Assembly: GCA_016934295.1 (NCBI GenBank)
Contig: JAFGTD010000101.1
Span: 12,334 to 76,333, forward strand
DNA length: 64,000 nucleotides
Direction of reading: 5' to 3'
Origin: Acidobacteriota bacterium
Lineage (GTDB): Bacteria > Acidobacteriota > UBA6911
Shown here: positions 1,575 to 43,877 of the stretch, in pieces
Numbering within the stretch: the stretch's first letter is position 1
How the letters are laid out: each line of letters begins with the position of its first letter
Program-made: the position numbers and the translations under genes
The notes under the pieces: generated by a model
The model's input: the letters and a program-made list of their open reading frames with translations, nothing else
Databases searched by the model: none
Told to the model about the DNA's origin: nothing

Positions 1575-1582
1575 GGTCGCTC

Positions 1583-27308: not shown

Positions 27309-27821
27309 CTACTGATGCGCCGCGAAAGGATGGGCCGCTTCGCCTTTCTTTGCAACAACTTCAGCGGCTTTCGGTTCGCCTGCTACGGCACGCTTTATGG
27401 CAAGCTTGGTCGCTTCGTAATTGAAATCCTGAATCTTGGTGTCGTCCTTGGCTTCCCAATGGATGAAAACACCGACGAGGATATATACATCATCAGCTTC
27501 TCCGGCCGGAATCGTGCCGTCTTCGACACAATCGGCAACGGCCATGCCAACGGCGCGTTGAGCCGGGCCGAACATCTGGACCGCCTGGGTGGCGTTCTTG
27601 ATGGTGACCTTATTGAACATTACCGTGGAAGGTTTGCACGGCAGGTTCGGAGCGACAACAGCCAGCAGGGAAGTAAATCCGTCTTTGTTATTGGCAAGTG
27701 TATTGCAGAAAGCAGCCTCGGCGGCGCTCCCCCGTGGGCCCAGTATCAGATCGATATGGGCGATTTCGTTTCCGTCTCCAACCAGTGCTTCTCCAACCAT
27801 AACTCGATCAATCTTTGCCAT
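27309..27821 (-). CDS. fae: formaldehyde-activating enzyme (5,6,7,8-tetrahydromethanopterin hydro-lyase)
   Basis: 170 aa, near-collinear with Fae of methylotrophs ([61 protein letters not shown]...[10 protein letters not shown]...[13 protein letters not shown]...NYEATKL.I.RAV.GEPKA...HPFAA). Confidence 0.9.
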
Positions 27822-29129: not shown

Positions 29130-29237
29130 TCAACCCAAAACTCATCTACATGCAATTTTACTTCGAAATCATACTATGGGAAAAAATAATAGCCACTCCC
29201 TGTTTCGATGCGATCCCCATGATTCTGTGATGGGTCG

Positions 29238-30131
29238 TTATTCCAGTCCGGTTTCTTCTTCAAGCAATGCGAGGAAGATTGCGGCTGCGGTCAGGTCCGC
29301 GGTCGTGCCGGGATTCAACTTGTGGGCTTCGTCGCGCAAAGCACGATCCATTTCCTGAAGTTTCGCCCGGCCTTGAGGCGTAAAAACACCCCCCTGCAGA
29401 AGAACCTCCTGTGCCGAATTTGAAACCTGGCGGGAAACCTCCACACCGTTTTTTCTGGCAACCAGAGAGTCCGGCACTCGACCCAGGATTGTAAGAAATG
29501 CCTGGACAACAGCATCGGAGCAGGTCACTCCCCTAGCGAGGGCATCTTTCAGGGCCGGCAGCGCGGTACCAAAAGTGATCTCAAAGCCTGTAATATATTC
29601 CGATGCAATGGAATCCCGATCTTTCGCCAGATCCATTGCTTCCAGCAAAGTCATTGACGGCTCTTCGGAAACATCCTGCGCAGCGGCTCGGCCCAGGCCT
29701 CCGGGATTTGCCGCCCGGATAGCCTCATAAGCCAGCCTGGCGTCCTCAACCGTAAGCGCACCCAACACGTCGCCCAGGTCTTTTCGTATTTTCCCAATAT
29801 CCTCCATCGGTTTCCCGATATCGACCAGGCAGGCTTTTGCAAGCGGGGCCAGAAGCAGGATAATTCCGAGGTTGGTATTGTTCCCTACCAGCTTCCGACT
29901 GTCATTTACTGCATGCAGAATAGTCCGGCCTACACTTGAATGCCCGGATTTCTCGAATGCGGGACCGATCGCAACGGCGCTGAGCAGGAAATCCTCAAAG
30001 CAGGCGTCGGTAAAATCGTGATGCCTGCTCACATTGCCCGGTTTTGGGGCGCAAACCTCCCGGATGCAGGCTTCCTGAACCATTTGTGCGATCCGCTTTC
30101 CTTTATCCTCTTTCATGATACAATCAAACAC
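29238..30131 (-). CDS. triphosphoribosyl-dephospho-CoA synthase (CitG/MdcB)-like protein of the H4MPT/MFR cofactor-biosynthesis gene set
   Basis: 297 aa with CitG-family resemblance (PKPGNVSRHHDF...NTNLGIILL). Such homologues sit among H4MPT-linked genes in methylotrophs. Confidence 0.5.
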   Translation of the reverse strand: MFDCIMKEDKGKRIAQMVQEACIREVCAPKPGNVSRHHDFTDACFEDFLLSAVAIGPAFEKSGHSSVGRTILHAVNDSRKLVGNNTNLGIILLLAPLAKACLVDIGKPMEDIGKIRKDLGDVLGALTVEDARLAYEAIRAANPGGLGRAAAQDVSEEPSMTLLEAMDLAKDRDSIASEYITGFEITFGTALPALKDALARGVTCSDAVVQAFLTILGRVPDSLVARKNGVEVSRQVSNSAQEVLLQGGVFTPQGRAKLQEMDRALRDEAHKLNPGTTADLTAAAIFLALLEEETGLE

Positions 30132-30268
30132 TGTATTTTGATTCGCCGATTGATATCGGAAAGACCTGAAATTTGTACGGCCCTGTTCGATTCATTGGCT
30201 TAAATACAAACCGTTTATAAGTTTTTTTCATAATATCCCAATCCGAATCCGAATCAACAGGGGGAATC

Positions 30269-30796
30269 ATGAATGATTTACGCTATCCCATCGGTACTTT
30301 ACAAAGGGAAGACAAAATCACCAGTGAGAAGCGGCATCAATATATCGATCAATTTGCAGAAACACCGTCAAAGCTCCTTGAGGCGGTAAGCGGCCTGTCC
30401 TCCTCTCAACTGGATACACCCTATCGCCCCGAAGGGTGGACGATCCGGCAGGTGGTCCATCACCTGGCAGACAGTCATCTCAATGCGTATGTCCGATTTA
30501 AACTGGCGCTTACCGAGGAAATCCCGACCGCCAAATCGTACGATCAGAAGAGCTGGTCTGAACTCGAGGATTCCCGCACTGCACCGGTCGAAGCTTCGCT
30601 TTCAGTATTTGAAGGATTGTATCAACGCTGGTCTATCCTGTTACGTTCCTTGAGCCCTGAAGGCTTCGCCAGAACATTACATCATCCGGATTGGGGCATC
30701 ATCAGTCTCGACAGTTATCTCGGTATGTGTGTGTGGCATGGGCTGCATCACATCGCCCATATCACGGAACTGCGGCAACGCATGCACTGGCAATAA
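30269..30796 (+). CDS. DinB_2 / YfiT-like metal-dependent hydrolase family protein
   Basis: Three-His motif positions (HHLADSHLNAY...WHGLHHIAHI). 175 aa. Own RBS GGGGGAA. Confidence 0.65.
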   Translation: MNDLRYPIGTLQREDKITSEKRHQYIDQFAETPSKLLEAVSGLSSSQLDTPYRPEGWTIRQVVHHLADSHLNAYVRFKLALTEEIPTAKSYDQKSWSELEDSRTAPVEASLSVFEGLYQRWSILLRSLSPEGFARTLHHPDWGIISLDSYLGMCVWHGLHHIAHITELRQRMHWQ

Positions 30797-30872
30797 AAGC
30801 TCTCGGTAATCACTTAACGGATTAATTATACTGAAGTGAAGAACGCTGAGATTCCCGAAGTAATTAAATAAT

Positions 30873-31772
30873 TCATTTATCCCGTGTTTGCGCCTTCGCG
30901 TTAGTCTTTTCAAGGACGTGATCGACAATCCTACCTGGGATGTCTACATCAGTGATCTTCTGCAGGCCTCTCCATCCGGGAATGCTGTTAATCTCTATCA
31001 CATACGTCCTGCCGTCTTCCGACTGCATCAGGTCCACGCCCGCATAATTCAATCCTATCGTTCGAACGGCCTCCAACGCCAGCTCCTCCATACGCTGACC
31101 TAATTCAACCGGTGCCAATTCAGCTCCCTTGGAGTAGTTGGTCTTCCATCCTTTTCCATTCCGCTGCATTGCGGCAACAACTTCGTTTCCTATGACAAAC
31201 GCCCGAATGTCTTTTTGAAAATGCGGCAGATATTCCTGAATGTAAAAAATATACCGGTTCAGTTCCCAGGCCCGCAGCACCCGGTAGGCAGTCTCTTCAT
31301 CCGAGGTCCGGACAATCCCCTTCCCTTCGGAGCCGAAAAGGGGCTTGATCACGACATCTCCCATATCATTGCAGGCATTCAAAGCCGTCTCGAAATCCTC
31401 GGTTACCAGGGAACGGGGAGTCGGAATACCTGCGTCCGCAAGAAGAAAAGACGTGTAGTATTTGTCCACCGTTCGCTCTATCGCCGAACCGGAATTGACA
31501 ACAGGAATCCCCAGCTTTTCCAGGCGGTGCAGAACGTCCATGCGGAAAATTATCTGTTCAAGGGATCCTGTCGGAATGGTGCGCACCAGCAGAGCCCGGC
31601 AACCATCCAGGCGCTCTCCACGCACCTCGACACCGGGACTGTCGCCGATCCGTCCCGCCAGGCGGGTAATGTTAAAAAAAACCGGTTCGCAGTCCCTGCT
31701 GCGCACGGCCTCTTCAAGAGCCAGCGCGTGATAGCCCCTTTGGGAGGACAGGATTCCTATTCTTGCGGACAT
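30873..31772 (-). CDS. RimK-family ATP-grasp alpha-L-glutamate ligase (MptN-like, tetrahydromethanopterin:glutamate ligase family)
   Basis: 299 aa. RimK-type ATP-grasp (VIKPLFGSEGKGI, YVIEINSIPGW). Directly downstream of mch in the same operon. Confidence 0.6.
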   Translation of the reverse strand: MSARIGILSSQRGYHALALEEAVRSRDCEPVFFNITRLAGRIGDSPGVEVRGERLDGCRALLVRTIPTGSLEQIIFRMDVLHRLEKLGIPVVNSGSAIERTVDKYYTSFLLADAGIPTPRSLVTEDFETALNACNDMGDVVIKPLFGSEGKGIVRTSDEETAYRVLRAWELNRYIFYIQEYLPHFQKDIRAFVIGNEVVAAMQRNGKGWKTNYSKGAELAPVELGQRMEELALEAVRTIGLNYAGVDLMQSEDGRTYVIEINSIPGWRGLQKITDVDIPGRIVDHVLEKTNAKAQTRDK

Positions 31773-31775
31773 ACC

Positions 31776-32747
31776 TCAGTCTTCCAGAAGTGAGCTTCTC
31801 AGAAGCGCGGGGTTGATACTCCCGGAGCGGAATGTGCGCCCCGAATTCATGTTACTGATTGCAACACGGGCGGGGCTGAAAAGCATGGGATCGATCTGGT
31901 AAAAGTCCCCGTTATAGCGCCGGAACAGTTCATAGAACGGCGTGCCGTAATCCCGGGATCCCGCGGAGGGAATCCTGTCGATCAGGAAAGCCAGTTCCTC
32001 ATCCTCCGCAGCAACCGCAAAGAAAGCCTGGCTTCCGTACAGGATGGCGTCGTTGGTTCTGCCGATTGCGTGCAGATCGTCCGCCGCAACAGGTGCCAGC
32101 GGGCAAACGCCGGAAGCCGCCTTAACTTTACGGACGTCAAATCCGAGCTCCGCCAGCTTGTGCATTCCGGTCTCGGCCGACCGTGCGGCGATTTGAATCG
32201 ATCCCACAAGGGATGCCGTCGGCGCAATCAGCAGACAGACATGATCCGGCTTGACCCCGCATTTTTCAGCAACAAAAGCGGCCAGGTCCTCATCCGGCAT
32301 CCGGCGCCCCTCCAGCATCAGAACAGCCGTATCGAACTGATCTTTATATTCCAGTTTCCGGAAGATTTCTTCATCCGCGAACAGCGCCCGCGCAGGGCCC
32401 GACCCCATGGCGAAAAACTGATCCTGTTTCACGGCCCAACCGGCATACTGCGAAGCCATGCAGGCGATATGGGGAGAACTGACGCTGACCTCCACCGTTG
32501 GAAGCCAGAACGAACCTCCGTCCGAATCCCGAAGGTGATAGCTTTTATCGCTGAAACCGACCTGCGCCAGCCCGCCCAGGCAGGCGCAGGAAAAGAGCCG
32601 GCCGGCCTCCAGGCTGCCGGAAACCTCAATCCCGGCATCCAAAACGTTAGCACCGTTTTTTAAACGTTTTACACTGATATCGAGCGCTTCACACTCTTGG
32701 ATCATCTGAACCACAATCGATGCAGCCCGTTGGTTAACGCTGATCAT
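31776..32747 (-). CDS. mch: methenyl-tetrahydromethanopterin cyclohydrolase
   Basis: 323 aa. N-terminus SVNQRAASIVVQMIQECEALDISVKRLKNGANVLDAGIEVSGSLEAGRLFSCACLGGLAQV matches the Mch family pattern. Confidence 0.8.
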   Translation of the reverse strand: MISVNQRAASIVVQMIQECEALDISVKRLKNGANVLDAGIEVSGSLEAGRLFSCACLGGLAQVGFSDKSYHLRDSDGGSFWLPTVEVSVSSPHIACMASQYAGWAVKQDQFFAMGSGPARALFADEEIFRKLEYKDQFDTAVLMLEGRRMPDEDLAAFVAEKCGVKPDHVCLLIAPTASLVGSIQIAARSAETGMHKLAELGFDVRKVKAASGVCPLAPVAADDLHAIGRTNDAILYGSQAFFAVAAEDEELAFLIDRIPSAGSRDYGTPFYELFRRYNGDFYQIDPMLFSPARVAISNMNSGRTFRSGSINPALLRSSLLED

Positions 32748-33543
32748 AAACCAGGATTTCTCCTTTCCCCAACCGGTTGAAATCCCCGCTGTAACGCCGG
32801 TAGCAGCCGGTTATGTATTCTTCGGAAATCGACAGACCCTGGAGGCGGAGATCCCGAAGGATGAGCTTCAGAAAACTCGGAGAATAACTGCAGTCATAGC
32901 AGAAAGTGGGCAGCAGTTCCGGTTGATTGAAAGTAACAAGGGTGCCGCGCAACAGTCCGGCACCCGCACGAATTCCCAGTTTCCCGAAAACCATAAGGGT
33001 ACCGGCTATCATAAAGGCTCCGGCGAAATCCCCCGCATTCCCTGCAACTACTATTAATCCCCGTCGCATTACGGCACCCGCTTCATTTCCGGCGTTGCCT
33101 TCGACGATAATCATACCCCGGTTCATACCCCGGCGGCTGCCCCGGTATGCGCCGCCCAGGCCGTGTCCCGCATTTCCATGTATATGGATTTTGCCGCCCT
33201 TCATTTCCGATCCGGCCCAGTCGCCGACATTGCCGTAGACATTGATTACACCCCCGCGCATTTCCGATCCAAGATGCATGCCTGCATCTCCGTGGACCGT
33301 GATCTTCCCCCGAGTCATTCCGGCGGCTATATTTTTTACGCGGCCAAGGTCGCCTTCCAGGACAATCTCCGTCGATCCGGCCCCGGCTACCTTAAAAAAA
33401 TCCCCCAGACAGGCGGCTTCATTGCCATAGGTAACCGGCATCCCGGCAACAGCCGCGACCGAATTGCCGGCAAACCGGTCCGGTACGATGACTCCCGCCT
33501 CCAGAGGTGCCTGCAGCTGCGATTTAAGCGTCAGTACGGTCAT
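32734..33543 (-). CDS. fwdC: formylmethanofuran dehydrogenase subunit C-like (FwdC/FhcC)
   Basis: Repeated Gly-rich beta-helix turns (GNAGHGLGGAYRGS, GNAGNEAGAVMRRG, GNAGDFAGAFMIAG) typical of FwdC/GltB-C-terminal-like proteins. Confidence 0.8.
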   Translation of the reverse strand: MTVLTLKSQLQAPLEAGVIVPDRFAGNSVAAVAGMPVTYGNEAACLGDFFKVAGAGSTEIVLEGDLGRVKNIAAGMTRGKITVHGDAGMHLGSEMRGGVINVYGNVGDWAGSEMKGGKIHIHGNAGHGLGGAYRGSRRGMNRGMIIVEGNAGNEAGAVMRRGLIVVAGNAGDFAGAFMIAGTLMVFGKLGIRAGAGLLRGTLVTFNQPELLPTFCYDCSYSPSFLKLILRDLRLQGLSISEEYITGCYRRYSGDFNRLGKGEILVYDQR

Positions 33544-34438
33544 TCCGCCGAGTCTCTTCCATTATTTTCTGCAGGTAAAACTTGAACTTCCCCAGGTTGC
33601 CCCCGTAGTTTCCCGCCGAGATCCGACGGATGCCCGGAATACAGGCAGCCTGTATTCCCTCACATGTTGCCTTTTCAATAGACTGCACATCCAGCCCGTT
33701 AATAACAATTTCCAATACGGAGTTGACGCCTTCCGGAAGATCCGTATCCGCAACACCGCGCAGGCTCGGACAGAATGCATCGTTTGTACTGGCCTTTAAA
33801 AATTTATACCGGGACCCGACCTTGCTGCCGCTGCGTACGATCCCGCCCGGAAAGGGCATTATAACTCCAGGAACGTGCTGCATCGCCTCCACGGCCAGTT
33901 CCGCCGCCTGCAGCGTCACCCCCGGGTCGCTTCCAAGAATCAGGAAATTCCCACCCGCCACAGCCGGCTGAACACCGAACTTGTCCTCCACCAGGAACTC
34001 GCCTTCCATGACAGGAATACGCCAGTACCGGCAACCGGCGATCACCTTGCTGCTCTGGTACCCATCTCCGAAAAACCTCAACTGTCCACCGACCGAAACC
34101 TTATCCCCTGCATCCAAACCGTTGAAGCAGGCGGTTGTCGGGCACGTCAACACACATTGCCCGATACGATCAATCAATTGCTGCGCCAGGGAATCCTTTG
34201 AAAACCCGAAGAAAAGGACGCTTACACCCGGTCTCCCATCGGGCGTCTGCTTCAGATCGAGTTCGATGGCGCCTTCACAGTGACAGCGGATAACGGAAGT
34301 GGCGAAGCCGGTCATCTTGGAAGCCGCTTCTCGCGCCCATTTTCGATTCACGGCCGTAATAATCACCCGCGAACCCCACATGCCGAAGGCTTCCGCGAAA
34401 GTGTCTTCGATTTCTACTCCATTGATGGAATGCGTCAT
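33524..34438 (-). CDS. ftr: formylmethanofuran:tetrahydromethanopterin N-formyltransferase (Ftr / FhcD)
   Basis: N-terminus INGVEIEDTFAEAFGMWGSRVIITA...KWAREAASKMTGFATSVI matches Ftr closely. 304 aa. Confidence 0.85.
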   Translation of the reverse strand: MTHSINGVEIEDTFAEAFGMWGSRVIITAVNRKWAREAASKMTGFATSVIRCHCEGAIELDLKQTPDGRPGVSVLFFGFSKDSLAQQLIDRIGQCVLTCPTTACFNGLDAGDKVSVGGQLRFFGDGYQSSKVIAGCRYWRIPVMEGEFLVEDKFGVQPAVAGGNFLILGSDPGVTLQAAELAVEAMQHVPGVIMPFPGGIVRSGSKVGSRYKFLKASTNDAFCPSLRGVADTDLPEGVNSVLEIVINGLDVQSIEKATCEGIQAACIPGIRRISAGNYGGNLGKFKFYLQKIMEETRRNDRTDA

Positions 34439-34445
34439 AGGATTA

Positions 34446-34480
34446 AAGGTTCATCGTTCAAGGTTCAGGGTTCAAGGTTA
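34446..34480. repeat. tandem heptanucleotide repeat (AAGGTTCA TCGTTCA AGGTTCA GGGTTCA AGGTTA) in the ftr-fwdA spacer
   Basis: 7-nt periodicity seen directly. Related to the repeats at 37446-37497 and 39978-40036. Confidence 0.6.
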
Positions 34481-34529
34481 AAAATCAAGCTGCAAAAGAT
34501 CGGCGAATAAAATTCAACCGAAAACATCC

Positions 34530-36161
34530 TTACGAATCACCGGTTGTTGCGACTTCCCGGGGGCGCGGCAGATAGTGCTCCAGCTGCACCGGGTAATTCT
34601 CAAATTCGATTGTGTAATATTTCCTGAAGTACTCCCGGATATCTTTTTCGACGGCCGTGTCGTACACGGGCGCGACATACAGGGTTTTCCCGAATGTTTC
34701 CCGACGGATGGATCCGTCCTCCACTAAAACCTCGCCTTCTTTAATCACATAGCGGGGGACGGAGAACATCTTTTCCGCGTCATCGCATTTATCATAGATC
34801 GTAACATCGGCATCGGCGCCGATGCCCAGATGGCCCTTATGCTTCAGTCCCAGGATTCGGGCCGGGGCGGCCCGCGTTATAATAGCGATCTCAAAAAGGG
34901 AATATTCCCTGTCCAGATCCGGCAGCGCCGTTTTGGCGACCGCCTTCGGGTTCACTTTTTTGATGGCCTCCCGCCGAAACTCGCGGTCCATCAGCAGGCG
35001 GATGACCTGCGGGTACGAGACGAACGACGCCCCATTCGGATGATCCGTCGACAATGCAATCCGCCAGGGATCGTTCACCATCAGGTACCATTCCAAACCG
35101 ACGGCCCACTGGGTCGTGTGCATGTGGCTTTTATCCTTGTATTCGATCGGGACAATCCCGCAGCCGCACTCATTTTCTACATCCACATTCACCCATTTTC
35201 GCCCCGTCACCTGATGCAGCATGTGTGCCAGGGGCCCGTCCCCGGTCATGGAGGTCGTATCCCCGAACAGTATCTGCCCGACATCCACCGTCAGGTTCGG
35301 GTGTGTATTCACATATTCCGCCAGTTCCGGAACCCTGGAAACAAACATGCCTCCCGGATCGCCGCCATAGCTGTGGAACTGAACGTGAGCCAGGTGCCCC
35401 CGCACTCCGTCCAGAGTCTTCATTGTCTCCAGGGTGGTTTCCCAGTTTCCGGCAACCCCCAATTCATTACAGTGTATATGTACCGGGTGCGGCAGGTGCA
35501 ATTCCATACCGGCTTCGGCAAGGGATCGTATGATTCCCCGCGGAGTGACCCCGAATCCGACCACTTCCTCATCAAGCGTGTGCGTATTCCCCAGGGATTT
35601 CCACATTTCGACACCTCCCGGGTTCACCATCTTTATCGCATACCCCTTCGTCGCCTGCAGCAGCCAGGCCACGTAGTCGCGCATGCGCCCGCGCTCCCCG
35701 GCGGCTATCTGCTGCATGATGTATTCGTTATTGCCCATCAGGACAAAGAAGCCCTTGTCGACTACGGGAATATCGGAAAATTCCTCATGGGCATGGCGGG
35801 CTGCAATGGGAGGAACCGCGGCATCGAAGGCAGTCGTGTACCCCATTGCCGCATAGCGATACCCCGTCGCGAAAGTTGAGGGTACCGACTTGCCGACTCC
35901 CGAACGCGTCAGGGATGTCCGGGGGACTGGATCCAGCCGGTGATCTTCCGGGCGCATTTTGCGCGCGGTATTCACCTTCGGTCCGGCGATGTGGGCATGC
36001 ATGTCCACGCCGCCCGGCATGACGATCATCCCGGACGCATCGATCGTGCGGCCGCCTTCAACCGAATCTACAACCTTCCCGTCATCGATACAGACATCGC
36101 GCACTTCCCCGTCGATATTATTGGCGGGATCGTAGACTGCCCCGTTCACGATTTTCAGCAT
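34530..36161 (-). CDS. fwdA: formylmethanofuran dehydrogenase subunit A-like amidohydrolase (FwdA/FhcA)
   Basis: 543 aa. Amidohydrolase metal-site HxH (GGVDMHAHIAGPKVN). FwdA-like length and context. Confidence 0.85.
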   Translation of the reverse strand: MLKIVNGAVYDPANNIDGEVRDVCIDDGKVVDSVEGGRTIDASGMIVMPGGVDMHAHIAGPKVNTARKMRPEDHRLDPVPRTSLTRSGVGKSVPSTFATGYRYAAMGYTTAFDAAVPPIAARHAHEEFSDIPVVDKGFFVLMGNNEYIMQQIAAGERGRMRDYVAWLLQATKGYAIKMVNPGGVEMWKSLGNTHTLDEEVVGFGVTPRGIIRSLAEAGMELHLPHPVHIHCNELGVAGNWETTLETMKTLDGVRGHLAHVQFHSYGGDPGGMFVSRVPELAEYVNTHPNLTVDVGQILFGDTTSMTGDGPLAHMLHQVTGRKWVNVDVENECGCGIVPIEYKDKSHMHTTQWAVGLEWYLMVNDPWRIALSTDHPNGASFVSYPQVIRLLMDREFRREAIKKVNPKAVAKTALPDLDREYSLFEIAIITRAAPARILGLKHKGHLGIGADADVTIYDKCDDAEKMFSVPRYVIKEGEVLVEDGSIRRETFGKTLYVAPVYDTAVEKDIREYFRKYYTIEFENYPVQLEHYLPRPREVATTGDS

Positions 36162-37444
36162 GCCTTCAGCTCCTTCACCCCGGCCAGCAGACGGTCGAGC
36201 ACTTCTTCATCCGACGGATAGGACGAGTCCATCACCTTGCGCAAATGAATGGGGATGTTGTCCATGCGATATACCGTTCCTTCAGCGTGAATCCCCGCAG
36301 TAGAGGTCGTAAACGCGATCCGGGCGCTGCGCGTCGTTTCGCTGTCGTGCGTATCCAGGGAGACAAGAGGGATTTCCGCCAGCCGTCGAGCAGCTTTCCC
36401 CGGAAGGCTTGAAATCGGGTCCGCGGCAACGACCAGAGCCGCGTCTGCCTCCCCCCGGCTGAGCAGATCGACAACGGTGTATTCGCCCGGATTGAACCGC
36501 GGATATCCCAGGCTGAAATTAACCCCGAAAGGGTATCCGGTCTGCCAGGCAAGTACGTTGTCGATACCGGTGACGTTCCCGTGCCCGCGCATGGGAATCA
36601 GGGCAAATTTGACATGCCGATTGAGAGCGCGCACCAGCAGAAATACGGCCGAAGTATTGAAATGTTTGCCCCGTGTCTGTGTCAGCCCCTGCCCGACAAA
36701 TATAACGCCGAATTTACAGTGCATCATCCGGTCGGCCAATCCGGTCAATTGTTCATAGGTCAGGCCGGTATTCTCAATGGATATTTCATCCGGTTTTTGA
36801 CCGTTCGCCAGTGCCTGAAGAGCCCAAAGAACCTCAAAATCCTTGCCCGGCTTGATCTGCAGGAAGATGTCCGCGGCGCGCGCACTGGGCGTGCGTCTCA
36901 CGTCGATCAAAACAACCGTTCTTCCTTTTCGTCCGTCAGGTACAAACATGCCTTTAGGGGTCACGGCATAGCGCGCCATATGGCGTGGATGGGATTCTGC
37001 GGGATTGGATCCCCAATAGATAATAAGGTCGGCGCGGTTTTTCACCTCGCCCAGGGTGCAGGTCGGCTCCCCGACGCCCTGCAGCGCCATCCCGGAGGGA
37101 CCGTGACAGACCGACGTGCAGCAGTCGATACATCCCCCGAGAACTTCCGCCAGGGCGACCGCCTTCCGTTGCGCTTCACAGGAGGTGCTGCTTAATCCGT
37201 AGATAAGAGGGTACCGGGCATTCGCTAGACAACGGGCGGCCTCTTCAATCCCTCGATCCAGGCTGACCGGCTTCCCTTCGATCCTCGCAACCGGAAGATC
37301 CGAAGGGGTGCCATGACTTAAAAACCAGGACTTGCCCAGGACACATGCATTTTTTGCCTTTGTGATACGGTCGCCTTCTACAGTGACGCTGATGTCGTCG
37401 CAAACACAGCCGCAGAATGCACAAACCACATGATCGACTTGCAT
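36155..37444 (-). CDS. fwdB: formylmethanofuran dehydrogenase subunit B (molybdopterin-binding), retaining the active-site Cys
   Basis: N-terminal 4Fe-4S motif CAFCGCVC. TSVCHGPSG segment equivalent to the (Se)Cys-HGPS metal-ligand motif of formate-dehydrogenase-type enzymes. 429 aa. Confidence 0.8.
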   Translation of the reverse strand: MQVDHVVCAFCGCVCDDISVTVEGDRITKAKNACVLGKSWFLSHGTPSDLPVARIEGKPVSLDRGIEEAARCLANARYPLIYGLSSTSCEAQRKAVALAEVLGGCIDCCTSVCHGPSGMALQGVGEPTCTLGEVKNRADLIIYWGSNPAESHPRHMARYAVTPKGMFVPDGRKGRTVVLIDVRRTPSARAADIFLQIKPGKDFEVLWALQALANGQKPDEISIENTGLTYEQLTGLADRMMHCKFGVIFVGQGLTQTRGKHFNTSAVFLLVRALNRHVKFALIPMRGHGNVTGIDNVLAWQTGYPFGVNFSLGYPRFNPGEYTVVDLLSRGEADAALVVAADPISSLPGKAARRLAEIPLVSLDTHDSETTRSARIAFTTSTAGIHAEGTVYRMDNIPIHLRKVMDSSYPSDEEVLDRLLAGVKELKAC

Positions 37445-37445
37445 A

Positions 37446-37497
37446 AAAAACCGTTTCCCGTTTCCCGTTCCCCGTTTCCCGTTGAATACAACGGGAA
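37446..37497. repeat. tandem heptamers (CCGTTTC x4.5) followed by hairpin CCCGTT-gaatac-AACGGG in the fwdD-fwdB spacer
   Basis: AAAAAACCGTTTCCCGTTTCCCGTTCCCCGTTTCCCGTTGAATACAACGGGAACC seen directly. Confidence 0.6.
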
Positions 37498-37498
37498 C

Positions 37499-37840
37499 CT
37501 AAAAGAGCAACGGTTTTATTTCGACCTCAAGGTGTTTGGAGTCCGGCATGCCGGACGCGTAGGTTTCGTCTCCAACCAGGCGGTTGCAGGCCGGTCCGAA
37601 GGGAATAAAAGCCAATCCTTCCGGCATATCGCCTTTAAAACATTTGACGGATGCTTCCCCGAATTCAGACTTCAAAACTACAGAATCCCCGTCGTGCAAT
37701 CCAAAATGCAGCATATCCGAAAGATTCATCTCAACCGCGTTCGTAGCCTCCTGATACTCCGGGCCTTCCTTGCCGGTGGATATTCCGGTTCCCTGCTTCG
37801 TGGATCGCCCTGAAATCAAAATTAGCCGAGTTTTATCCAT
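37499..37840 (-). CDS. fwdD: formylmethanofuran dehydrogenase subunit D-like (molybdopterin-dinucleotide-binding beta-barrel domain)
   Basis: 113 aa. Resembles the small MopB C-terminal-domain-type subunit (ISTGKEGPEY...EASVKCFKGDMPEGLAFIPFGPACN). Confidence 0.6.
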   Translation of the reverse strand: MDKTRLILISGRSTKQGTGISTGKEGPEYQEATNAVEMNLSDMLHFGLHDGDSVVLKSEFGEASVKCFKGDMPEGLAFIPFGPACNRLVGDETYASGMPDSKHLEVEIKPLLF

Positions 37841-38993
37841 AAATCTCTTCTTTGAGCTCTTCCGCGAAACGAATCAATTCCGCAAGGGTTTCCTCCCTGT
37901 CCGGCCGGTCTCGCAGAATCGTACATATCGGACCACCCCTGGGGATCGTTTCTCCGGATGCGGGAATATCCCGGATGCCCCTGCCCTTCCAGTTCCGGGT
38001 GTCCGGCACCGTCGCATCCTTCCCGGCAAAAAGGATGCTCTTCCCGAAACACTTCCCGGTATTTAATGCGCTTTCCAGCCTGAAATCCGGAAGTTCCCCA
38101 TGAAGCGCTGCTCTTACATGCAGATGGAAAATTGGAAGCCCGTAAGACTGTTCTATCAACTCCATGGAAGCCGAATAACGGGGATTCACCTCAAGCAGGT
38201 ATATTCGATCACCAGAGAGTATGAAGTCAATTCCATTCACACCCATTAATCCATATTCAGATGTCAGGAATGCGGCCAATCTCTTCAGCTGGTCCAGAAT
38301 TGCCTTTCCGGTATCAGGATCCATGACTTCCGGTAAAGGCAGAAGGTTACCGCAATAACGGAACCCTTGAGAGCCAAATTCCTTTATGCCGATCAACTGC
38401 TCGGTGATTCCGAGAACGACAGCTTCCTTGCCATTCGCTACAAAGGAGACGGAACACGGTCTGCCGGAAATATATTCCTGGAGCATTGAATCCGGAACGC
38501 CATGCATCCTCTCTCTTCCAGGCAATGATTCTGTCCAAAAAGAAATCCCATGTCCTCCCCCGCTCAGCAGCGGTTTCAGCAGCCAGCGGCATTGGGAATC
38601 AACCGGCCGTGTTTCATTGTTAAAGACCATTTTCGGCACGGGAAAACCCGCGCGTCCGAGCCTGTCGAACAGGTCGGACCAGCTGCGCACGGCAGCGACA
38701 ACCCGGGATGAATTTCCGATAATCCTGTGTCCTTCGCCGAATCGGGCAAGTATCCCGGGATAGTTTTCAATGTTGGATGTATAGGCAACGGCGTCAAAAT
38801 TCATCTTCCGGCTGGCTTTAAAGAGTGCCCCGGGGCTGTATCCGGTATGGAAATCGCGACGCAGGGAGTAGGATTCCGTTAATTCCTTCAGATCCCGGTC
38901 GCCGAAGGCATCCAGGGCAATCACGGCATATCCGCTGCGTACAGCGGATTCGGCCATTGCCCGCACGCTTATTCCTATGACAAGAACCTTCAT
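37833..38993 (-). CDS. ATP-grasp domain protein of the H4MPT-linked C1-transfer gene set
   Basis: 386 aa. ATP-grasp signature (IYLLEVNPRYSASMELIE). Overlaps fwdD by 8 nt, suggesting translational coupling. Confidence 0.55.
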   Translation of the reverse strand: MKVLVIGISVRAMAESAVRSGYAVIALDAFGDRDLKELTESYSLRRDFHTGYSPGALFKASRKMNFDAVAYTSNIENYPGILARFGEGHRIIGNSSRVVAAVRSWSDLFDRLGRAGFPVPKMVFNNETRPVDSQCRWLLKPLLSGGGHGISFWTESLPGRERMHGVPDSMLQEYISGRPCSVSFVANGKEAVVLGITEQLIGIKEFGSQGFRYCGNLLPLPEVMDPDTGKAILDQLKRLAAFLTSEYGLMGVNGIDFILSGDRIYLLEVNPRYSASMELIEQSYGLPIFHLHVRAALHGELPDFRLESALNTGKCFGKSILFAGKDATVPDTRNWKGRGIRDIPASGETIPRGGPICTILRDRPDREETLAELIRFAEELKEEIYG

Positions 38994-39030
38994 CCTTTAT
39001 CCGTGGAAAGGAAGCAAATCCAGGTTGACT

Positions 39031-39945
39031 TTATATAATCTCTTTGGCGATGGCGTAGACGCTTTCGGTGTCCAGCACAAGATCGTTGTATTCAAACAAT
39101 TTGGCGATGCAGGCTTTATGCACTTTCATTTTGGGATTCCCGACGGCCAGCGCTCCCAATGCAAATTTGCCGTCATACCCGGCAAAATCATCCCCCGGCT
39201 TGACGCCCTCAATACCCAACGGCTCCACGAGATTAAAATCGATCAGCCATTTCAAACCGGGTCTGGCCGACCAGGAGGCCGACGGCAGCAGGCGCAATCC
39301 CGCAGGTCCGGCCGAAACCAGAATTTCGGTCTCATCCAGTAAATTTTCAAGCTCCGCGTCATCGGCGGGATCGCTCACCTGAATTGTTCCGCCGGAAGCG
39401 GCAGAGGGATTATGAGAGAATGTTTCCGCCGTCGCTCTTCCGCTTTTAAGCGTTTGTTGCGCCAGGTCTTTATTAAAACGGTCCCCCAGCAATCCGGGAA
39501 GAATGGACACAACCCGCACCCGGCATCCCTCTGCAGCCATTAAAACAGCGGCGCGCAAGCCTACAGGGCCCGGTCCCATCACCAGCGCACTCTTCCCTTG
39601 AAGATCCGTCTGCCGGGCCAGCTTGGCAATTGCCGTGGAGGCGGTGGTATTGCAGCCGTTGGAATCGAGCATGAGGGATATTTGAAACGGTCCGAAAAAT
39701 ACCCGGCGGGCTTCAGCCAGCATTTGTTCCCCCCTATCCACATCGGAACCGCCTATCCATACCGCAATGCTTTTCAGATCCGGTATGCCGCGGGTAAAGA
39801 TGGCTCCCTGGACCAAACCGCGTATGTCCGACGGCTTCACTCCTCCGTAACTCAGCACAACATCCGCGCCTGAATCCTGTGCAACAATACTATCGAAGGT
39901 ACTGGCGAATTTATCGCTGTCCAATTGAATAAGAATCTTTTTCAT
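39031..39945 (-). CDS. NAD(P)-dependent methylene-tetrahydromethanopterin dehydrogenase (MtdA/MtdB family)
   Basis: 304 aa. Strong family motifs RVFFGPFQISLMLDSNGCNTTA and HKACIAKLFEYNDLVLDTESVYAIAKE. Confidence 0.85.
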   Translation of the reverse strand: MKKILIQLDSDKFASTFDSIVAQDSGADVVLSYGGVKPSDIRGLVQGAIFTRGIPDLKSIAVWIGGSDVDRGEQMLAEARRVFFGPFQISLMLDSNGCNTTASTAIAKLARQTDLQGKSALVMGPGPVGLRAAVLMAAEGCRVRVVSILPGLLGDRFNKDLAQQTLKSGRATAETFSHNPSAASGGTIQVSDPADDAELENLLDETEILVSAGPAGLRLLPSASWSARPGLKWLIDFNLVEPLGIEGVKPGDDFAGYDGKFALGALAVGNPKMKVHKACIAKLFEYNDLVLDTESVYAIAKEII

Positions 39946-39977
39946 ACTGTGTCCTTTCGAAAAAACCAGGGGGACCT

Positions 39978-40036
39978 AAGGTTAATTCCGTTCAGCGTTT
40001 CCCGTTTCCCGTTTCCCGTTCAGGGTTCAGGGTTAT
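39978..40036. repeat. tandem heptamers (CGTTTCC x3 then CGTTCAGG GTTCAGG) in the mptG-like / mtd spacer
   Basis: AAGGTTAATTCCGTTCAGCGTTTCCCGTTTCCCGTTTCCCGTTCAGGGTTCAGGGTT seen directly. Confidence 0.6.
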
Positions 40037-40103
40037 AAAAACCCACACGACCTGAACTAGCCCGCAATAATCTCAATGAATTAAAATTTTGGAAATAAGT
40101 CTA

Positions 40104-41141
40104 TTACCGGAATTCGATTATTCGGGCGCCGCGGTTCTGGGGCCGGACCAGGAATGATTCGCCTCCACCGAGGCTGTCGAGATAAGCCTGCGTTTGATCG
40201 AGTAGCTTTTGCGCTTCAGCCTTTCCCTGGATCAGGCCATAGACGGTCGGCCCCCAGGAGCTCTGCCCGATGCCGGCGGCTCCGCGACCCATCATAAATT
40301 CCACAATCTTTTCCGAAACGGGATTGGCGAAACGACCTCCCTGGACGGAGGCAAAACAGTCCCCGACCATGCACTGGATACCGGTCAAGGCACAACCGAA
40401 ATTTTCTATATCCTTTTCCACCAGGGCCGGCAGCATCCGGATCAACAGCTCCCGGCTTATTTTCTCCACCAGGCCGGACGGCGCCCGGGGCAGTTTTATG
40501 AAGGCATTGTCCTCCTTCTTACCGTTCAATCCCTTTTGGGTTTTAGGAATAACTGTTACAAAGATCCAGTCCCTGGGCACTGCATGGTGAAACAGAACAG
40601 GGGGAACATGGTTTTTCTCCACCGCCCGGGCCGAACCATTCTTAAATCCGGCTTCGCTCGAGCCGAATCTTCGATTCGGCCGGGCTGCGCCGGAAAGATC
40701 CGTGAGAACACGATGACCGCCATCCAGGACAAATCCGCCATGTTGGAAAGTGGAAATGCCGATCCCGGAATGCACGCCCCTTCCCACCGCCAATGCAATT
40801 TCCTGAATACTGAGTCTGCGACCGGACAGCCGCGCCAGCGCCGCGCCGACGGCCAGAGCCAGCTGGGTTCCGGAACCCAATCCGACATGCGCCTGGATAT
40901 GGCTTATCAGATTCAGATGCGCCCCTGAGGGGAAGCCGTAACGCCGCATGAACCGCCGTGCATAGGTTGCAACCCGCCGTCGCTCCAGTCCCTCAACCTG
41001 CAGTGTCTTCGCCGTCCGCGCCCGCAGAACGAGTTTCGGCCGATCCACCGCCAATCCCACACTTCCGTACAAGCGTCCCAGTCCGCCGTTATTGTCCAGC
41101 AAACCCAGATGCAAACGCGCACAGGTTCGTACTTCAATCAT
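40104..41141 (-). CDS. GHMP-kinase-fold protein resembling beta-ribofuranosylaminobenzene 5'-phosphate synthase (MptG-like, methanopterin biosynthesis)
   Basis: 345 aa. N-terminus CARLHLGLLDNNGGLGRLYGSVGLAV like beta-RFAP synthases. GHMP motif region. Confidence 0.55.
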   Translation of the reverse strand: MIEVRTCARLHLGLLDNNGGLGRLYGSVGLAVDRPKLVLRARTAKTLQVEGLERRRVATYARRFMRRYGFPSGAHLNLISHIQAHVGLGSGTQLALAVGAALARLSGRRLSIQEIALAVGRGVHSGIGISTFQHGGFVLDGGHRVLTDLSGAARPNRRFGSSEAGFKNGSARAVEKNHVPPVLFHHAVPRDWIFVTVIPKTQKGLNGKKEDNAFIKLPRAPSGLVEKISRELLIRMLPALVEKDIENFGCALTGIQCMVGDCFASVQGGRFANPVSEKIVEFMMGRGAAGIGQSSWGPTVYGLIQGKAEAQKLLDQTQAYLDSLGGGESFLVRPQNRGARIIEFR

Positions 41142-41695
41142 TCCTTCCCCGCTTTCCGGATATAATCCCGAACCACTTGCAGCGCCTGTTTTTCCGTTGC
41201 CCCGCCTGTCTTCTCCACGATCTCCGCGAAACCAAATATCTTCTCATCTACGATTTTTCGATCGTAGAAAGCCAGCCGGGTCGCCAGGATAATCGCTTCA
41301 ATCACGGCACCTGCAGCCCGGCAGAAACCAGGAAAATCCTTCCGCTCTTCCGTGTGCACGACCCGGCACTTCACTTCCGCCCGGGCTTCGGAACCTTCAC
41401 TGAAAATCACCTCCAGTTCCCGCCACGCACATGTCCCTTCAAAAACAATCCCCGGAATCTTCCTTGCCGGGAAATTCGGCAGAATATCACCGTTCAAGGC
41501 ACATCGTGCATACGCCAGCACATCGTCGGCAATATTCGCCACACCATATCCGGTGGAAAGAAGATTTCGACACGTGTCGGTATTCCGAAACGGTCGCACG
41601 GTAACAATATCATCCGCCCACAAGACGCCCATCGGGGCGAAATTCGGCTTGCCACCTTCATCAATAGTTGAAAAGATCGTCTCAACAATCATCAA
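41138..41695 (-). CDS. DUF447-family protein (H4MPT-biosynthesis-associated)
   Basis: 185 aa. Family membership inferred from general resemblance and context only. Confidence 0.45.
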   Translation of the reverse strand: MMIVETIFSTIDEGGKPNFAPMGVLWADDIVTVRPFRNTDTCRNLLSTGYGVANIADDVLAYARCALNGDILPNFPARKIPGIVFEGTCAWRELEVIFSEGSEARAEVKCRVVHTEERKDFPGFCRAAGAVIEAIILATRLAFYDRKIVDEKIFGFAEIVEKTGGATEKQALQVVRDYIRKAGKE

Positions 41696-41716
41696 AGTAG
41701 TTAATATGCAAACAGA

Positions 41717-41790
41717 AAAAAACTCACCGCCGAGGCGCAGAGAACGCAGAGGATTTTAAAATAACTCTGTGTCTCTGAAGTGAGTTTTTA
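41717..41790 (-). terminator. long imperfect hairpin (AAAAAACTCAC...GTGAGTTTTT with inner CAGAG/CTCTG) between the DHPS-like and DUF447 genes
   Basis: Inverted repeat seen directly. On the minus strand the stem is followed by an A/T-rich tract. Confidence 0.35.
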
Positions 41791-43107
41791 TTCAGATAAA
41801 TACCCCCAACGCAAGTCCTCTTCCTGTTCATATTTTTTTCCGAGTTTCAGAGCCAGAGACGCTTTCTGCAGCTCCCGCCCCAGGTAAAAGGCCTCTGCGG
41901 CATTCCTGATATTCAAGTGATTGAATATCGACTGAACATCGTTGTCTCTAATGAAAATCTTATTATTAAACACATAAACGGAATCACGGTCTATAAAGAT
42001 GCGATAGTTACGATCCCGCACTTTTTCCTGCATCCCGCGCAGCTCTTCTTCAGAGAATGCTTCAAAAGGAGGATCCTTGATTGTGATCAAGCCGTCATCG
42101 AGATGCTTGGGCAGTATCCTGTGATGACAGGCATAATGCATCAGCCGCCGGGCAACATCGAACTCCCGGACTGCGCCTCGGGCCCAGCTGATCACCTCGG
42201 TAGTCAACACATAATCTATTTCCAGTTCGGTTACAACTCCCGCCATCACCGCACTCATCCCCGTCGTATCCGCGTCCGTCAGTTCGGTGAGATTTCCCGA
42301 TCCCAGGAGCATTTCGGCCTTCGGATGATTCCTTCGGGTTGTAATAAATTCGCCGATCGATTCGGTAAAACCGAATCCGATCGGCCTTAAAACCGGGTCG
42401 ATGATATAGGGAACGCCCCAGGCTTCCAGTTGAGAGATATTGCGCTCCAGCGATTCCAGCCCCTGTTCGAAATCCGGGACAACCACGACCTTGCAGTGCA
42501 GACGCGGCACTACTTCCATATTCCTGGAATTGACACTGAGAAGGAAATCGACATGGGCTTCATCCGCCTTCAGGATATCTTCCTTGCTGAACGAATCCAC
42601 ACTGACCAGGTATCCATCGGATTTCAGAGCTTTCACCACCCTGTCGATGTTCGGGAATCCCCCTTCAACCGGGCAGCCCAGATCTATGACATCGGCGCCG
42701 TTGGCTCTGTAATAGGAAGCCCGCTCCATTATCGCCTCCATACCAAGCCGGTAGGCGTCGACGATCTCGGCGAAAATTCTAACTTTGTGGGCGCCGTATC
42801 CTTCCAGTGCACGGGCTTTCCCGAAGTAGCCGGGAATATCCTTCAGGCACCTGGGGCCGCAAATAACTTCAACTCCCAGTTTGTCCTCTATTATTCCGGG
42901 ATCCGCTGAACACAAACCCGGAATCATGACCTTATCGCAACCCATGGCGCTGGTCAGGTGCTTCGCGACAAACCGTGCATCCATTAATGCCGCGACCGAA
43001 ATGGGAAGAACGGCACACTCATATTTCAGGCCTCTACCCATCCCTTCCAGTGTCTTCTGGAGGAACGGACCGGCCAGTTTGCCGGTTACAAATAGGTAGC
43101 GAGACAT
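41788..43107 (-). CDS. dihydropteroate-synthase-like (pterin-binding) protein of the methanopterin biosynthesis type
   Basis: 439 aa. Pterin-binding TIM-barrel resemblance (GADVIDLGC ... ADEAHVDFLLSVNS). Overlaps the downstream flavoprotein gene. Confidence 0.55.
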   Translation of the reverse strand: MSRYLFVTGKLAGPFLQKTLEGMGRGLKYECAVLPISVAALMDARFVAKHLTSAMGCDKVMIPGLCSADPGIIEDKLGVEVICGPRCLKDIPGYFGKARALEGYGAHKVRIFAEIVDAYRLGMEAIMERASYYRANGADVIDLGCPVEGGFPNIDRVVKALKSDGYLVSVDSFSKEDILKADEAHVDFLLSVNSRNMEVVPRLHCKVVVVPDFEQGLESLERNISQLEAWGVPYIIDPVLRPIGFGFTESIGEFITTRRNHPKAEMLLGSGNLTELTDADTTGMSAVMAGVVTELEIDYVLTTEVISWARGAVREFDVARRLMHYACHHRILPKHLDDGLITIKDPPFEAFSEEELRGMQEKVRDRNYRIFIDRDSVYVFNNKIFIRDNDVQSIFNHLNIRNAAEAFYLGRELQKASLALKLGKKYEQEEDLRWGYLSE

Positions 43108-43613
43108 TTTGTCAATTCCTCCCGGCTCCCGACAACGTTCGTTCCCGCCAGCCTTCTGAGTTTTCCGGTATTCTCAAGATCAATCGGTCTCGGATACACT
43201 TTTAACGGTTCCCGGTGAGGTCCGAAGGACAACGTCTCGGGAGCCAGGTCGGTCGGGTACACAATGATCGGCACCCTGGATTTGCCGGCCTGAGCAAACA
43301 GGTTGGTCACAAGGGTGTCCGAGATGCCGTGCACGAATTTAGCGACTGAATTGGAGGTGGCGGGTGCTATTATTAATAGTTTGTACCTGCCGCCGTAAAA
43401 CCGCGCCGCCACCGGGGCGCTCTTCCCTTCATCCCGGCAAATCGACATGCCGGATGCCTGAAGGCGGGAGTATAAACCGTACATCTTCAGAACCTCTTCT
43501 GCCGCCCGGGACAGGAATAGATCGATCTTTTTCCGTTCCATAATCATGCCTATACATTCTTCCAAAGCATGCCCCGCGCCGGTAATCGCCCATGCGATTC
43601 TTTTTTTATCCAT
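43086..43613 (-). CDS. archaeal-flavoprotein-like FMN protein (DmrA/AfpA family, dihydromethanopterin reductase-like)
   Basis: 175 aa flavoprotein fold (WAITGAGHALEECIGMI ... LLIIAPATSNSVAKF). Confidence 0.55.
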   Translation of the reverse strand: MDKKRIAWAITGAGHALEECIGMIMERKKIDLFLSRAAEEVLKMYGLYSRLQASGMSICRDEGKSAPVAARFYGGRYKLLIIAPATSNSVAKFVHGISDTLVTNLFAQAGKSRVPIIVYPTDLAPETLSFGPHREPLKVYPRPIDLENTGKLRRLAGTNVVGSREELTKCLATYL

Positions 43614-43877
43614 ATCGGATCCCTTAGAGTGAACGGTTGAACTCAGACCGAGAATGGCATAAAGTCCCGGGATTTTTCCACCCGAAAGACATTTATTTTT
43701 CTCCCACCCGTCCCTTTAACCTGGATTATTCATGAAGCTTCTTCTGCGGCAGCCTGCTAAGCGAAGCGACCGGATCCGGATTAAATCCCGACATGGCGTA
43801 TTTGTTGATGACAGGATATTACATTGACCTGTACGATAGGTATTATTGAAAGGCACCCGTGGTAGTGACCGGGAGAT

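Follow-up and report, generated by a model that had tools for sequence, protein, structure and literature searches.

Structures are available for two kinds of complex that act on formyl carriers. The archaeal formylmethanofuran dehydrogenases, FwdABCD(FG), have been visualized in Methanothermobacter wolfeii (5T5I) and Candidatus (Ca.) Ethanoperedens (8RJA), and a dedicated electron module is present in these structurally characterised archaeal complexes, although not in every archaeal operon. In the second kind, the FhcABCD complex of Methylorubrum extorquens (6S6Y), the FhcB subunit is non-redox: Ser62 takes the place of Cys118, His119 and Arg288 are not kept, and both the iron-sulfur (FeS) domain and FwdD are absent (PMC6926001). 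The scaffold subunits differ as well, in that FhcC residues 216-246 fold into a helix-loop-helix where FwdC has a hairpin, and this FhcC element is the formyltransferase platform (Hemmann et al. 2019, PMC6926001). In addition, fwdD homologues were reported by Chistoserdova in the bacterial tetrahydromethanopterin (H4MPT) clusters of Synergistetes, Firmicutes, and NC10 (PMC5020050); a selenocysteine FmdB, encoded in an fmdD-B-A-C operon, was described from Rhodopirellula in 2016, together with a tree on which Cys and Sec forms are distinguished and Acidobacteria appear (PMC4807772); and Hakuba Actinobacteria were reported in 2020 to have a fwdDBA-ftr-fwdC operon that encodes the FeS domain and Cys118 but lacks fwdEFG (PMC7325909). 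A 2024 review of formylmethanofuran dehydrogenases treats bacterial Fhc as just a distant homologue and discusses no bacterial redox-active enzyme (PMC11656701), and the paper on UBA6911 Acidobacteria draws an H4MPT route that ends in formate, a "truncated C1 machinery" of unclear value. Here, we describe a fwdD-fwdB-fwdA-ftr-fwdC-mch operon, surrounded by fae, an MtdB-like gene, and cofactor-biosynthesis genes, on a 64-kb stretch of contig JAFGTD010000101.1 (the window, meaning the whole stretch that was analysed), which derives from an Acidobacteria metagenome-assembled genome (MAG). The features of this region suggest that it encodes a redox-competent bacterial formylmethanofuran dehydrogenase, a reading to which we assign a probability of roughly 0.8.

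The proposed dehydrogenase module is encoded by two adjoining open reading frames (ORFs):
37499-37840, minus strand: fwdD, 113 aa, the molybdopterin-dinucleotide-binding cap subunit, corresponding to domain IV of a formate-dehydrogenase module
36155-37444, minus strand: fwdB, 429 aa, the catalytic subunit, with FeS ligands Cys8, Cys11, Cys15, and Cys34, metal ligand Cys113, His114, and Arg286

FwdB begins with MQVDHVVCAFCGCVCDD and contains the string TSVCHGPSG. In phmmer searches of the Protein Data Bank (PDB), it matches five solved FwdB chains from end to end (E=1e-99 to 1e-123), the best being 8rja_B (E=2.9e-123) and 5t5i_B of M. wolfeii (E=4.6e-123, residues 3-428 on chain residues 4-430), and the match to M. 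extorquens FhcB (6s6y_B, E=3e-11) covers residues 54-151 only (98 residues). BLASTP gives 46.3% identity to the FwdB of the M. wolfeii tungsten enzyme over 432 columns with 11 gap positions. In the phmmer alignment, Cys113-His114 is in register with Cys118-His119 of 5t5i_B, within an SVCHGPS string that is identical in both proteins; Arg286, in PMRGH, is in register with Arg288; and Cys8, Cys11, Cys15, and Cys34 reproduce the archaeal [4Fe-4S] motif, CxxCxxxC...C. Because the PDB matches run end to end and these residues fall in register at 46.3% identity, the homology is judged to extend over the whole protein and is not a chance motif. The score against TIGR03129 (528 bits, cut-off 328 bits) agrees, and an identical protein at NCBI is named "formylmethanofuran dehydrogenase subunit B". 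For comparison with FhcB, the plasmid-borne proteins of Azospirillum and Azoarcus, which have no fwdD upstream, were used together with the published M. extorquens residue list. In the four-way alignment, the window protein and M. wolfeii FwdB read SVCHGPS and PMRGH, whereas the Azospirillum and Azoarcus proteins read SDGLYRN/PLAGH and GDALMHS/CLGGG.

The product of fwdD matches the solved FwdD chains of A. fulgidus (2ki8_A, E=5e-18) and M. wolfeii (5t5i_D, E=6.5e-17) and the Pfam family Molydop_binding (PF01568, E=5.6e-12). It also matches the NCBIfam FwdD model NF042908 (E=7.6e-24), with a score of 84 bits that lies under the 175-bit cut-off of that model. A preliminary description of this DNA, made from the letters alone, had proposed that the cysteine of CHGPS is the metal ligand of FwdB, that an N-terminal FeS motif is present, that the 113-aa protein encoded just upstream is FwdD-like, and that the enzyme is a true dehydrogenase and not a metal-free Fhc. 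The first three proposals are borne out by the alignments and matches above, and the fourth is in keeping with them, since none of the losses that define FhcB applies and, as described next, FwdD and the Cys/Sec-His pair are retained together among relatives.

Relatives were collected by scanning one genome per GTDB species with FwdB, which yielded 248 confirmed relatives; the closest reference genome is that of Acidobacteria bacterium UBA6911 (91% identity), and the comparisons below use the best 80 loci of the 248. Their labels span Acidobacteriota, Chloroflexota, Thermodesulfobacteriota, Planctomycetota, Gamma- and Alphaproteobacteria (including one Methylococcaceae MAG and two Thiothrix), Gemmatimonadales, Actinomycetota (Ca. 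Hakubella), and Bacillota. Gene order is largely kept, with fwdD directly upstream of fwdB in 58 of the 72 relatives that have fwdD and fwdA-ftr-fwdC in this order in 48 of 63. At all twelve tracked ligand and catalytic positions of FwdB, 53 of the 80 loci have the same residues, at overall identities as low as about 51%, and in another 19 the sole difference is Ser/Thr at residue 117 or a TGA at codon 113. The N-terminal FeS cysteines are kept in 78 of 80, and one of the remaining two loci ends at a contig edge. In eleven loci, an in-frame TGA stands exactly at the Cys113 codon in the context SL*HGPT; ten of these are from Planctomycetota (L058, L059, L060, L063, L065, L067, L069, L072, L076, and L078) and one is from Vicinamibacterales of the Acidobacteriota (L075). 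This TGA is read as a putative selenocysteine codon. Exchange of Cys and Sec is a hallmark of a catalytic metal ligand.

The active-site pair and the cap subunit also tend to be lost together. Among 76 assessable loci, fwdD is present with an intact Cys/Sec-His in 72, absent with an intact pair in one, and absent with a degenerate pair in three, and no locus combines fwdD with a degenerate pair; the association (Fisher p=5.7e-5) ignores phylogeny, however, and the three co-losses amount to about two independent events, which tempers its weight. A degenerate site is found in four loci, L017 (Acidobacteriota) and L066, L068, and L073 (Planctomycetia, Cys to Asp or Lys), all without fwdD; the three assessable loci that have lost both are L017, L066, and L073. 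The interchange of Cys and Sec and the joint loss of cap subunit and ligand argue for a working metal centre instead of a fossil scaffold.

Two relatives deserve separate description. In L017 (an Acidobacteriota MAG, CAZDMR010000008.1, fwdB at 10001-11287), FwdB is 72% identical to the window protein, and immediately upstream of its gene comes the ATP-grasp gene, the interval containing no match to fwdD. His114 is replaced by Gln and the GH that follows Arg286 by DR, and Cys113 and the FeS cysteines are kept; judged from these residues, L017 looks like an early stage of a transition from Fwd to Fhc. In the Methylococcaceae MAG (L062), an intact Cys-His FwdB (fwdB at 1957-3231) is accompanied by fwdD at about 6770, after fwdC. 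Because L062 carries this intact FwdB, the statement that methylotrophs have only the metal-free Fhc is not valid for all Proteobacteria.

The remaining genes of the operon follow directly:
34530-36161, minus strand: fwdA, predicted 543-aa amidohydrolase subunit for formyl-methanofuran hydrolysis/condensation
33524-34438, minus strand: ftr (fhcD), formylmethanofuran:H4MPT formyltransferase, between fwdA and fwdC as in Fhc operons
32734-33543, minus strand: fwdC, scaffold subunit of 269 aa with a beta-helix fold, whose C-terminal helix-loop-helix, at about residues 223-245, is of the Fhc type
31776-32747, minus strand: mch, methenyl-H4MPT cyclohydrolase (Pfam MCH, E=1.3e-123)

FwdA scores 768 bits against TIGR03121 (cut-off 393 bits) and matches 8rja_A (E=7e-166), 5t5i_A (E=7e-157), and FhcA 6s6y_A (E about 1e-105); by these scores, it is nearer to archaeal FwdA than to FhcA. 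The candidate ligands of a binuclear metal site, H55, H57, K177, H228/H230, H259, and D373, are kept in relatives. Ftr (NF002554, 441 bits; TIGR03119, 428 bits) is equidistant from archaeal Ftr (1m5s_A, E=6e-95) and FhcD (6s6y_D, E=8e-92). FwdC, which scores 266 bits against TIGR03122 and is over the cut-off, aligns with FhcC (6s6y_C) over residues 6-265 but with the archaeal chains 5t5i_C, 8rja_C, and 9sw6_K only to about residue 215. An AlphaFold2 model of FwdC is confident (predicted local distance difference test, pLDDT, 94) and has predicted helices at 223-234 and 241-245. In Foldseek comparisons of this model, 6s6y_C is best by TM-score (0.91, rmsd 1.9 A), followed by 5t5i_C (0.87, 3.1 A). 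The preliminary description had missed this side of the locus: with ftr inside the operon and an Fhc-type FwdC C-terminus predicted, the enzyme is not purely archaeal in type.

These assignments allow a mechanism to be proposed in which the enzyme would catalyse the final step of H4MPT-linked formaldehyde oxidation in this organism. Fae would give rise to methylene-H4MPT, which the MtdB-like enzyme and Mch would convert to formyl-H4MPT, and Ftr would then transfer the formyl group from formyl-H4MPT to a methanofuran-type carrier. FwdA, as a binuclear-metal amidohydrolase, would set formate free into an internal cavity, with FwdC serving as scaffold. FwdB and FwdD would form a formate-dehydrogenase-type module that contains a single [4Fe-4S] cluster as well as a Mo- or W-bis-pyranopterin centre with Cys113 as its ligand; we infer occupancy by these cofactors from the conserved ligands. 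Oxidation of formate to CO2 by this module would yield two low-potential electrons, which the FwdB cluster would relay to a soluble acceptor, in all likelihood ferredoxin. Given the position of ftr within the operon and an FwdC with the Fhc-type helix-loop-helix, to which the formyltransferase binds in Fhc, the complex probably shares the Fhc architecture (A, B, C, and Ftr) and still has the dehydrogenase module that Fhc lost; put most economically, it would be an Fhc-shaped complex from which the dehydrogenase was never lost. A fuller model for the clade can be offered only tentatively and at somewhat less than even odds. In this model, a five-subunit Ftr-FwdABCD machine would convert formyl-H4MPT directly to CO2 and reduced ferredoxin, with a polyglutamylated furan swinging between Ftr and FwdA and formate tunnelled to the Mo/W centre. 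Such a machine would be a living intermediate between archaeal Fwd and proteobacterial Fhc, of the kind inferred by Hemmann et al., with L017-like lineages in the course of losing FwdD and the active-site His.

Several points weigh against the reading of a redox-competent dehydrogenase. The whole case rests on sequence, and the AlphaFold2 model of FwdB, made from 42 close homologues, is poor (pLDDT 65, predicted TM-score 0.60), so it provides no structural check of the pterin pocket; its low-confidence stretches, 109-137 and 285-316, take in the active-site loops, and the model was therefore not used for fold comparison. By structure, FwdC favours FhcC over archaeal FwdC by a modest margin, and the Foldseek E-value places 5t5i_C first. 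A C-terminal segment of the same length is present in the FwdC of nearly all bacterial relatives, including those whose operons lack ftr. It is therefore a marker of the bacterial clade and no proof of Ftr docking, for which the sequence is suggestive. No ORF with a ferredoxin motif (CxxCxxCxxxC) was found within 8 kb of fwdB, either in the window or in any of the acidobacterial relatives, and no genes for pterin-cofactor synthesis or for tungstate or molybdate uptake were identified in the window. Look-ups aimed past the window ends, for fwdFG, tupABC, and moeA, returned only Logan contigs of 5-7 kb that fall within it.

The preliminary description had also stated that no FwdF/FwdG polyferredoxin lies nearby, which agrees with the 8-kb search; the window as a whole holds just three ORFs with ferredoxin motifs, each adjoining a different oxidoreductase, and none forms an FwdF/FwdG-type module. 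The formyl-methanofuran/CO2 couple lies at about -0.53 V (PMC11656701), and because this suffices to reduce ferredoxin, ferredoxin would be the natural acceptor. About 20 loci labelled Gammaproteobacteria (L035, L038-L040, L042-L052, L056, and L061, at about 14.7-15.3 kb of 21-kb loci and shifted in shorter ones; L054, at 7726-8028) have, directly behind fwdC, a gene for a 7Fe FdxA-type ferredoxin of about 100 aa. In a Gemmatimonadales locus (L055, 7752-9519), the same ferredoxin and an FprA-like ferredoxin/NADP reductase stand just upstream of fwdD. These neighbouring ferredoxins are candidate electron partners of the bacterial enzyme family and, by analogy, lend indirect support to a soluble ferredoxin in the present organism. 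The gaps inside related operons were checked for electron carriers, and just a short-chain dehydrogenase/reductase (SDR) gene in Chloroflexia, unrelated inserts, and the one ferredoxin/reductase pair of L055 were found. The SDR gene stands between fwdA and ftr in the Chloroflexota loci L023 (about 12.9-13.65 kb) and L033 (about 12.9-13.6 kb, frameshifted), and two loci labelled Chloroflexia, L020 and L027, have a gap of equal size. The AfpA-like flavoprotein of the window (43086-43613) was considered as an electron partner and rejected, as it belongs to the dihydromethanopterin reductase family and serves cofactor synthesis.

The sequence cannot settle whether the metal is tungsten or molybdenum, and no sequence criterion known to us tells W from Mo enzymes in this case. 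The suggestion of tungsten rests solely on two aldehyde:ferredoxin oxidoreductase (AOR)-family genes elsewhere in the window, which are real, as first described, although both score far under the AOR equivalog cut-off:
22704-24413, minus strand: AOR-family gene
49007-51055, minus strand: AOR-family gene
The second of these is followed by a gene for a 270-aa 4Fe-4S dicluster protein (stretch 49007-51864, minus strand).

With regard to direction, fae, the MtdB-like gene, and mch in one cluster point to the oxidation of formaldehyde-level carbon. A true dehydrogenase could instead run reductively and, as in methanogens, begin an H4MPT-dependent Wood-Ljungdahl-type route by fixing CO2 on the furan carrier. 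The archaeal homologues are reversible (PMC11656701), reductive use has been discussed for Hakuba Actinobacteria, whose operon is identical (PMC7325909), and the organism, with two AORs and CCG/FeS enzymes, looks anaerobic. Reductive use is nevertheless unlikely: fae and an NAD(P)-type MtdB-like gene, both hallmarks of the oxidative route, stand in the same cluster; no mer, mtr, or CODH/ACS genes were found in the 64-kb window; and no linked electron-bifurcating or polyferredoxin module could supply electrons at -0.5 V.

A second alternative is that the complex acts like Fhc and hydrolyses the formyl carrier to free formate, with FwdB and FwdD kept as scaffolds whose ancestral residues have not yet decayed. 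The B-A-ftr-C order and the FwdC C-terminus are indeed Fhc-like, the published scheme for UBA6911 Acidobacteria ends in formate with separate formate dehydrogenases, and a second cytoplasmic Mo/W-pterin oxidoreductase, possibly a formate dehydrogenase, is encoded at 1583-3751. Residues awaiting decay would not be expected, however, to remain identical at all twelve tracked positions in 53 of 80 loci, with 19 more differing only at 117 or by TGA113, nor would the loci with degenerate sites (L017, L066, and L073) be expected to have lost FwdD too. Selenocysteine at a purely structural position is likewise hard to explain, and the 722-aa product of the second oxidoreductase gene falls under every formate-dehydrogenase family cut-off; Fhc-like action is thus quite improbable. 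That the Cys motif and the small upstream ORF reflect chance resemblance or mis-called ORFs has a negligible probability and is already refuted by E-values of 1e-123 (FwdB) and 1e-17 (FwdD) against solved structures, by 248 confirmed relatives in reference genomes, and by the synteny kept in the best 80 loci.

Returning to the redox-competent dehydrogenase, its operon forms part of a longer set of genes for the formaldehyde pathway and its cofactors:
40104-43613, minus strand: predicted H4MPT biosynthesis genes at the head of the operon, namely an AfpA-like dihydromethanopterin reductase, a dihydropteroate-synthase-like protein, a DUF447 protein, and beta-RFAP synthase
39031-39945, minus strand: MtdB-like methylene-H4MPT dehydrogenase (Pfam Mpt_N, E=5e-29)
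37833-38993, minus strand: ATP-grasp ligase, directly upstream of fwdD (Pfam ATP-grasp_3, E=1.3e-27; weak MfnD match, E=3e-9)
30873-31772, minus strand: RimK-family glutamate ligase, MptN/MyfB-like (NF040720 MptN, E=8.5e-88, 294 bits, under the 350-bit cut-off; Pfam RimK)
27309-27821, minus strand: fae, formaldehyde-activating enzyme, the pathway entry (Pfam Fae, E=5e-70; TIGR03126, 257 bits, cut-off 118)

In transcription order, the co-directional run comprises genes for the AfpA-like flavoprotein, the dihydropteroate-synthase-like protein, the DUF447 protein, beta-RFAP synthase, the MtdB-like dehydrogenase, and the ATP-grasp ligase, followed by fwdD, fwdB, fwdA, ftr, fwdC, mch, and the RimK/MptN-like ligase gene. 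Farther along on the same strand are a CitG-like gene, fae, and an MfnD-like ligase gene, with a HisA/F-like gene on the plus strand between them. Spacing in the run consists mostly of short overlaps or small gaps, with overlaps of 7 to 20 nt at the ATP-grasp/fwdD, fwdB/fwdA, ftr/fwdC, and fwdC/mch junctions: the last 8 nt of the ATP-grasp gene are shared with the start of fwdD, the fwdA start overlaps the fwdB stop by 7 nt, and mch overlaps the fwdC stop by 14 nt. A DinB-family gene (30269-30796, plus strand) breaks the co-directional H4MPT cluster between the RimK-like and CitG-like genes. Promoter and terminator scans of 29000-44500 gave counts not above those of shuffled sequence and so do not define the operon ends.

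The genes at the head of the operon are assigned by NCBIfam matches (TIGR02700/TIGR02699, TIGR00284, and NF040726/TIGR00144) and by the Pfam DUF447, Flavoprotein, and GHMP kinase domains. The MtdB-like protein shares 31% identity with an Azospirillum protein annotated as NAD(P)-dependent MtdB (E=1.5e-28). The ATP-grasp ligase is 28% identical to the Azospirillum ATP-grasp protein encoded beside mtdB (E=2.5e-29), and its position is kept in relatives; by synteny with the proteobacterial ATP-grasp gene beside mtdB, it is a candidate MyfA/OrfY-type methylofuran glutamate ligase. Together, the MptN/MyfB-like ligase and the ATP-grasp ligase at the OrfY position would be consistent with a polyglutamylated furan arm (for the methylofuran context, see PMC8141765).

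Elsewhere in the window, stretch 1005-3751 (minus strand) encodes a cytoplasmic 722-aa oxidoreductase of the Mo/W-bis(pyranopterin guanine dinucleotide) type (1583-3751), which has its own Fe4S4 domain and adjoins a 189-aa protein with two ferredoxin motifs. It lies under all NCBIfam cut-offs, its best partial matches being PhsA and Fdh-alpha, and it was rejected as a partner formate dehydrogenase on that ground and because it is unlinked to the operon. Stretch 6213-17049 encodes two dehydrogenases of the Ldh_2 family, a GlcD-like FAD oxidase together with a CCG/4Fe-4S subunit, a LarA-like homologue of lactate racemase, and a zinc alcohol dehydrogenase, and it may be a locus for hydroxy-acid utilisation. 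A gene at 18609-19625 (plus strand), which adjoins an IclR regulator gene, matches the 3-dehydro-scyllo-inosose hydrolase IolN (496 bits against a 245-bit cut-off) and hints at inositol catabolism.

If the enzyme is active, these anaerobic Acidobacteria take formaldehyde-level carbon to CO2 without the release of formate and gain electrons at about -0.53 V that are able to reduce ferredoxin, energy that a route through Fhc and an NAD-linked formate dehydrogenase misses. The "truncated C1 machinery" of the lineage would then have to be redrawn in metabolic reconstructions. Among the nearest bacterial relatives recovered, it is the redox-competent form that prevails, and the well-studied, metal-free Fhc is the derived exception. 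A Cys-type, polyferredoxin-free enzyme from a mesophile would also be an attractive minimal model for CO2/formyl chemistry.

Comparison with known systems places the locus between the two structurally characterised kinds of complex. Similar to archaeal FwdABCD(FG) of M. wolfeii and Ca. Ethanoperedens, the window encodes A, B, C, and D subunits, with an FwdB that has the FeS domain and the equivalents of Cys118, His119, and Arg288, an FwdD that is a separate cap, and an FwdA whose metal ligands are kept. The main differences from the archaeal enzymes are that no FwdF/FwdG polyferredoxin or F420-reducing module is encoded, that ftr is inside the operon, that the C-terminus of FwdC is predicted to be an Fhc-type helix-loop-helix where the archaeal one is a hairpin, and that the host is bacterial and has fae as well as an MtdB-like gene, implying use in the oxidative direction. 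Every sequence-testable feature of Fwd/Fmd except a linked polyferredoxin module is present. Similar to FhcABCD of M. extorquens, the genes are ordered B-A-ftr(fhcD)-C, the FwdC/FhcC C-terminus is of the Fhc type, and the operon lies inside a bacterial "archaeal-like" H4MPT/methylofuran cluster (fae, mtd, mch, and ATP-grasp glutamate ligases). Unlike Fhc, FwdB and FwdD keep all the features that were lost in FhcB and that are missing from the FhcB of Azospirillum and Azoarcus. By sequence, the locus therefore shares with Fhc the operon ftr and the FwdC helix-loop-helix, but not the loss of the dehydrogenase.

A third likeness is to the fwdDBA-ftr-fwdC and fmdDBAC operons of Ca. Hakubella, Rhodopirellula sp. 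P2 and other Planctomycetes, Ca. Methylomirabilis (NC10), Firmicutes, and Synergistetes, which have the same operon, the FeS domain, and Cys/Sec118 and lack fwdEFG; one of the relatives recovered in the present scan (L074, 55-56% identity) is Ca. Hakubella itself. The novelty implied by the preliminary description was accordingly overstated, as bacterial fwdD, the same operon, and the Cys/Sec forms had all been reported (PMC5020050, PMC7325909, PMC4807772): the enzyme type is widespread in bacteria and already described from genomes, and this one is a further member. The additions made here, modest in extent, are the co-retention statistics, the Fhc-type FwdC terminus, and the ferredoxin neighbours in relatives, which together lead to a concrete model of a formyl-H4MPT-to-CO2 complex. 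Unlike the bacterial operons reported previously, the present one comes from an acidobacterial host and is fused to a complete fae-to-mch and cofactor-biosynthesis cluster.

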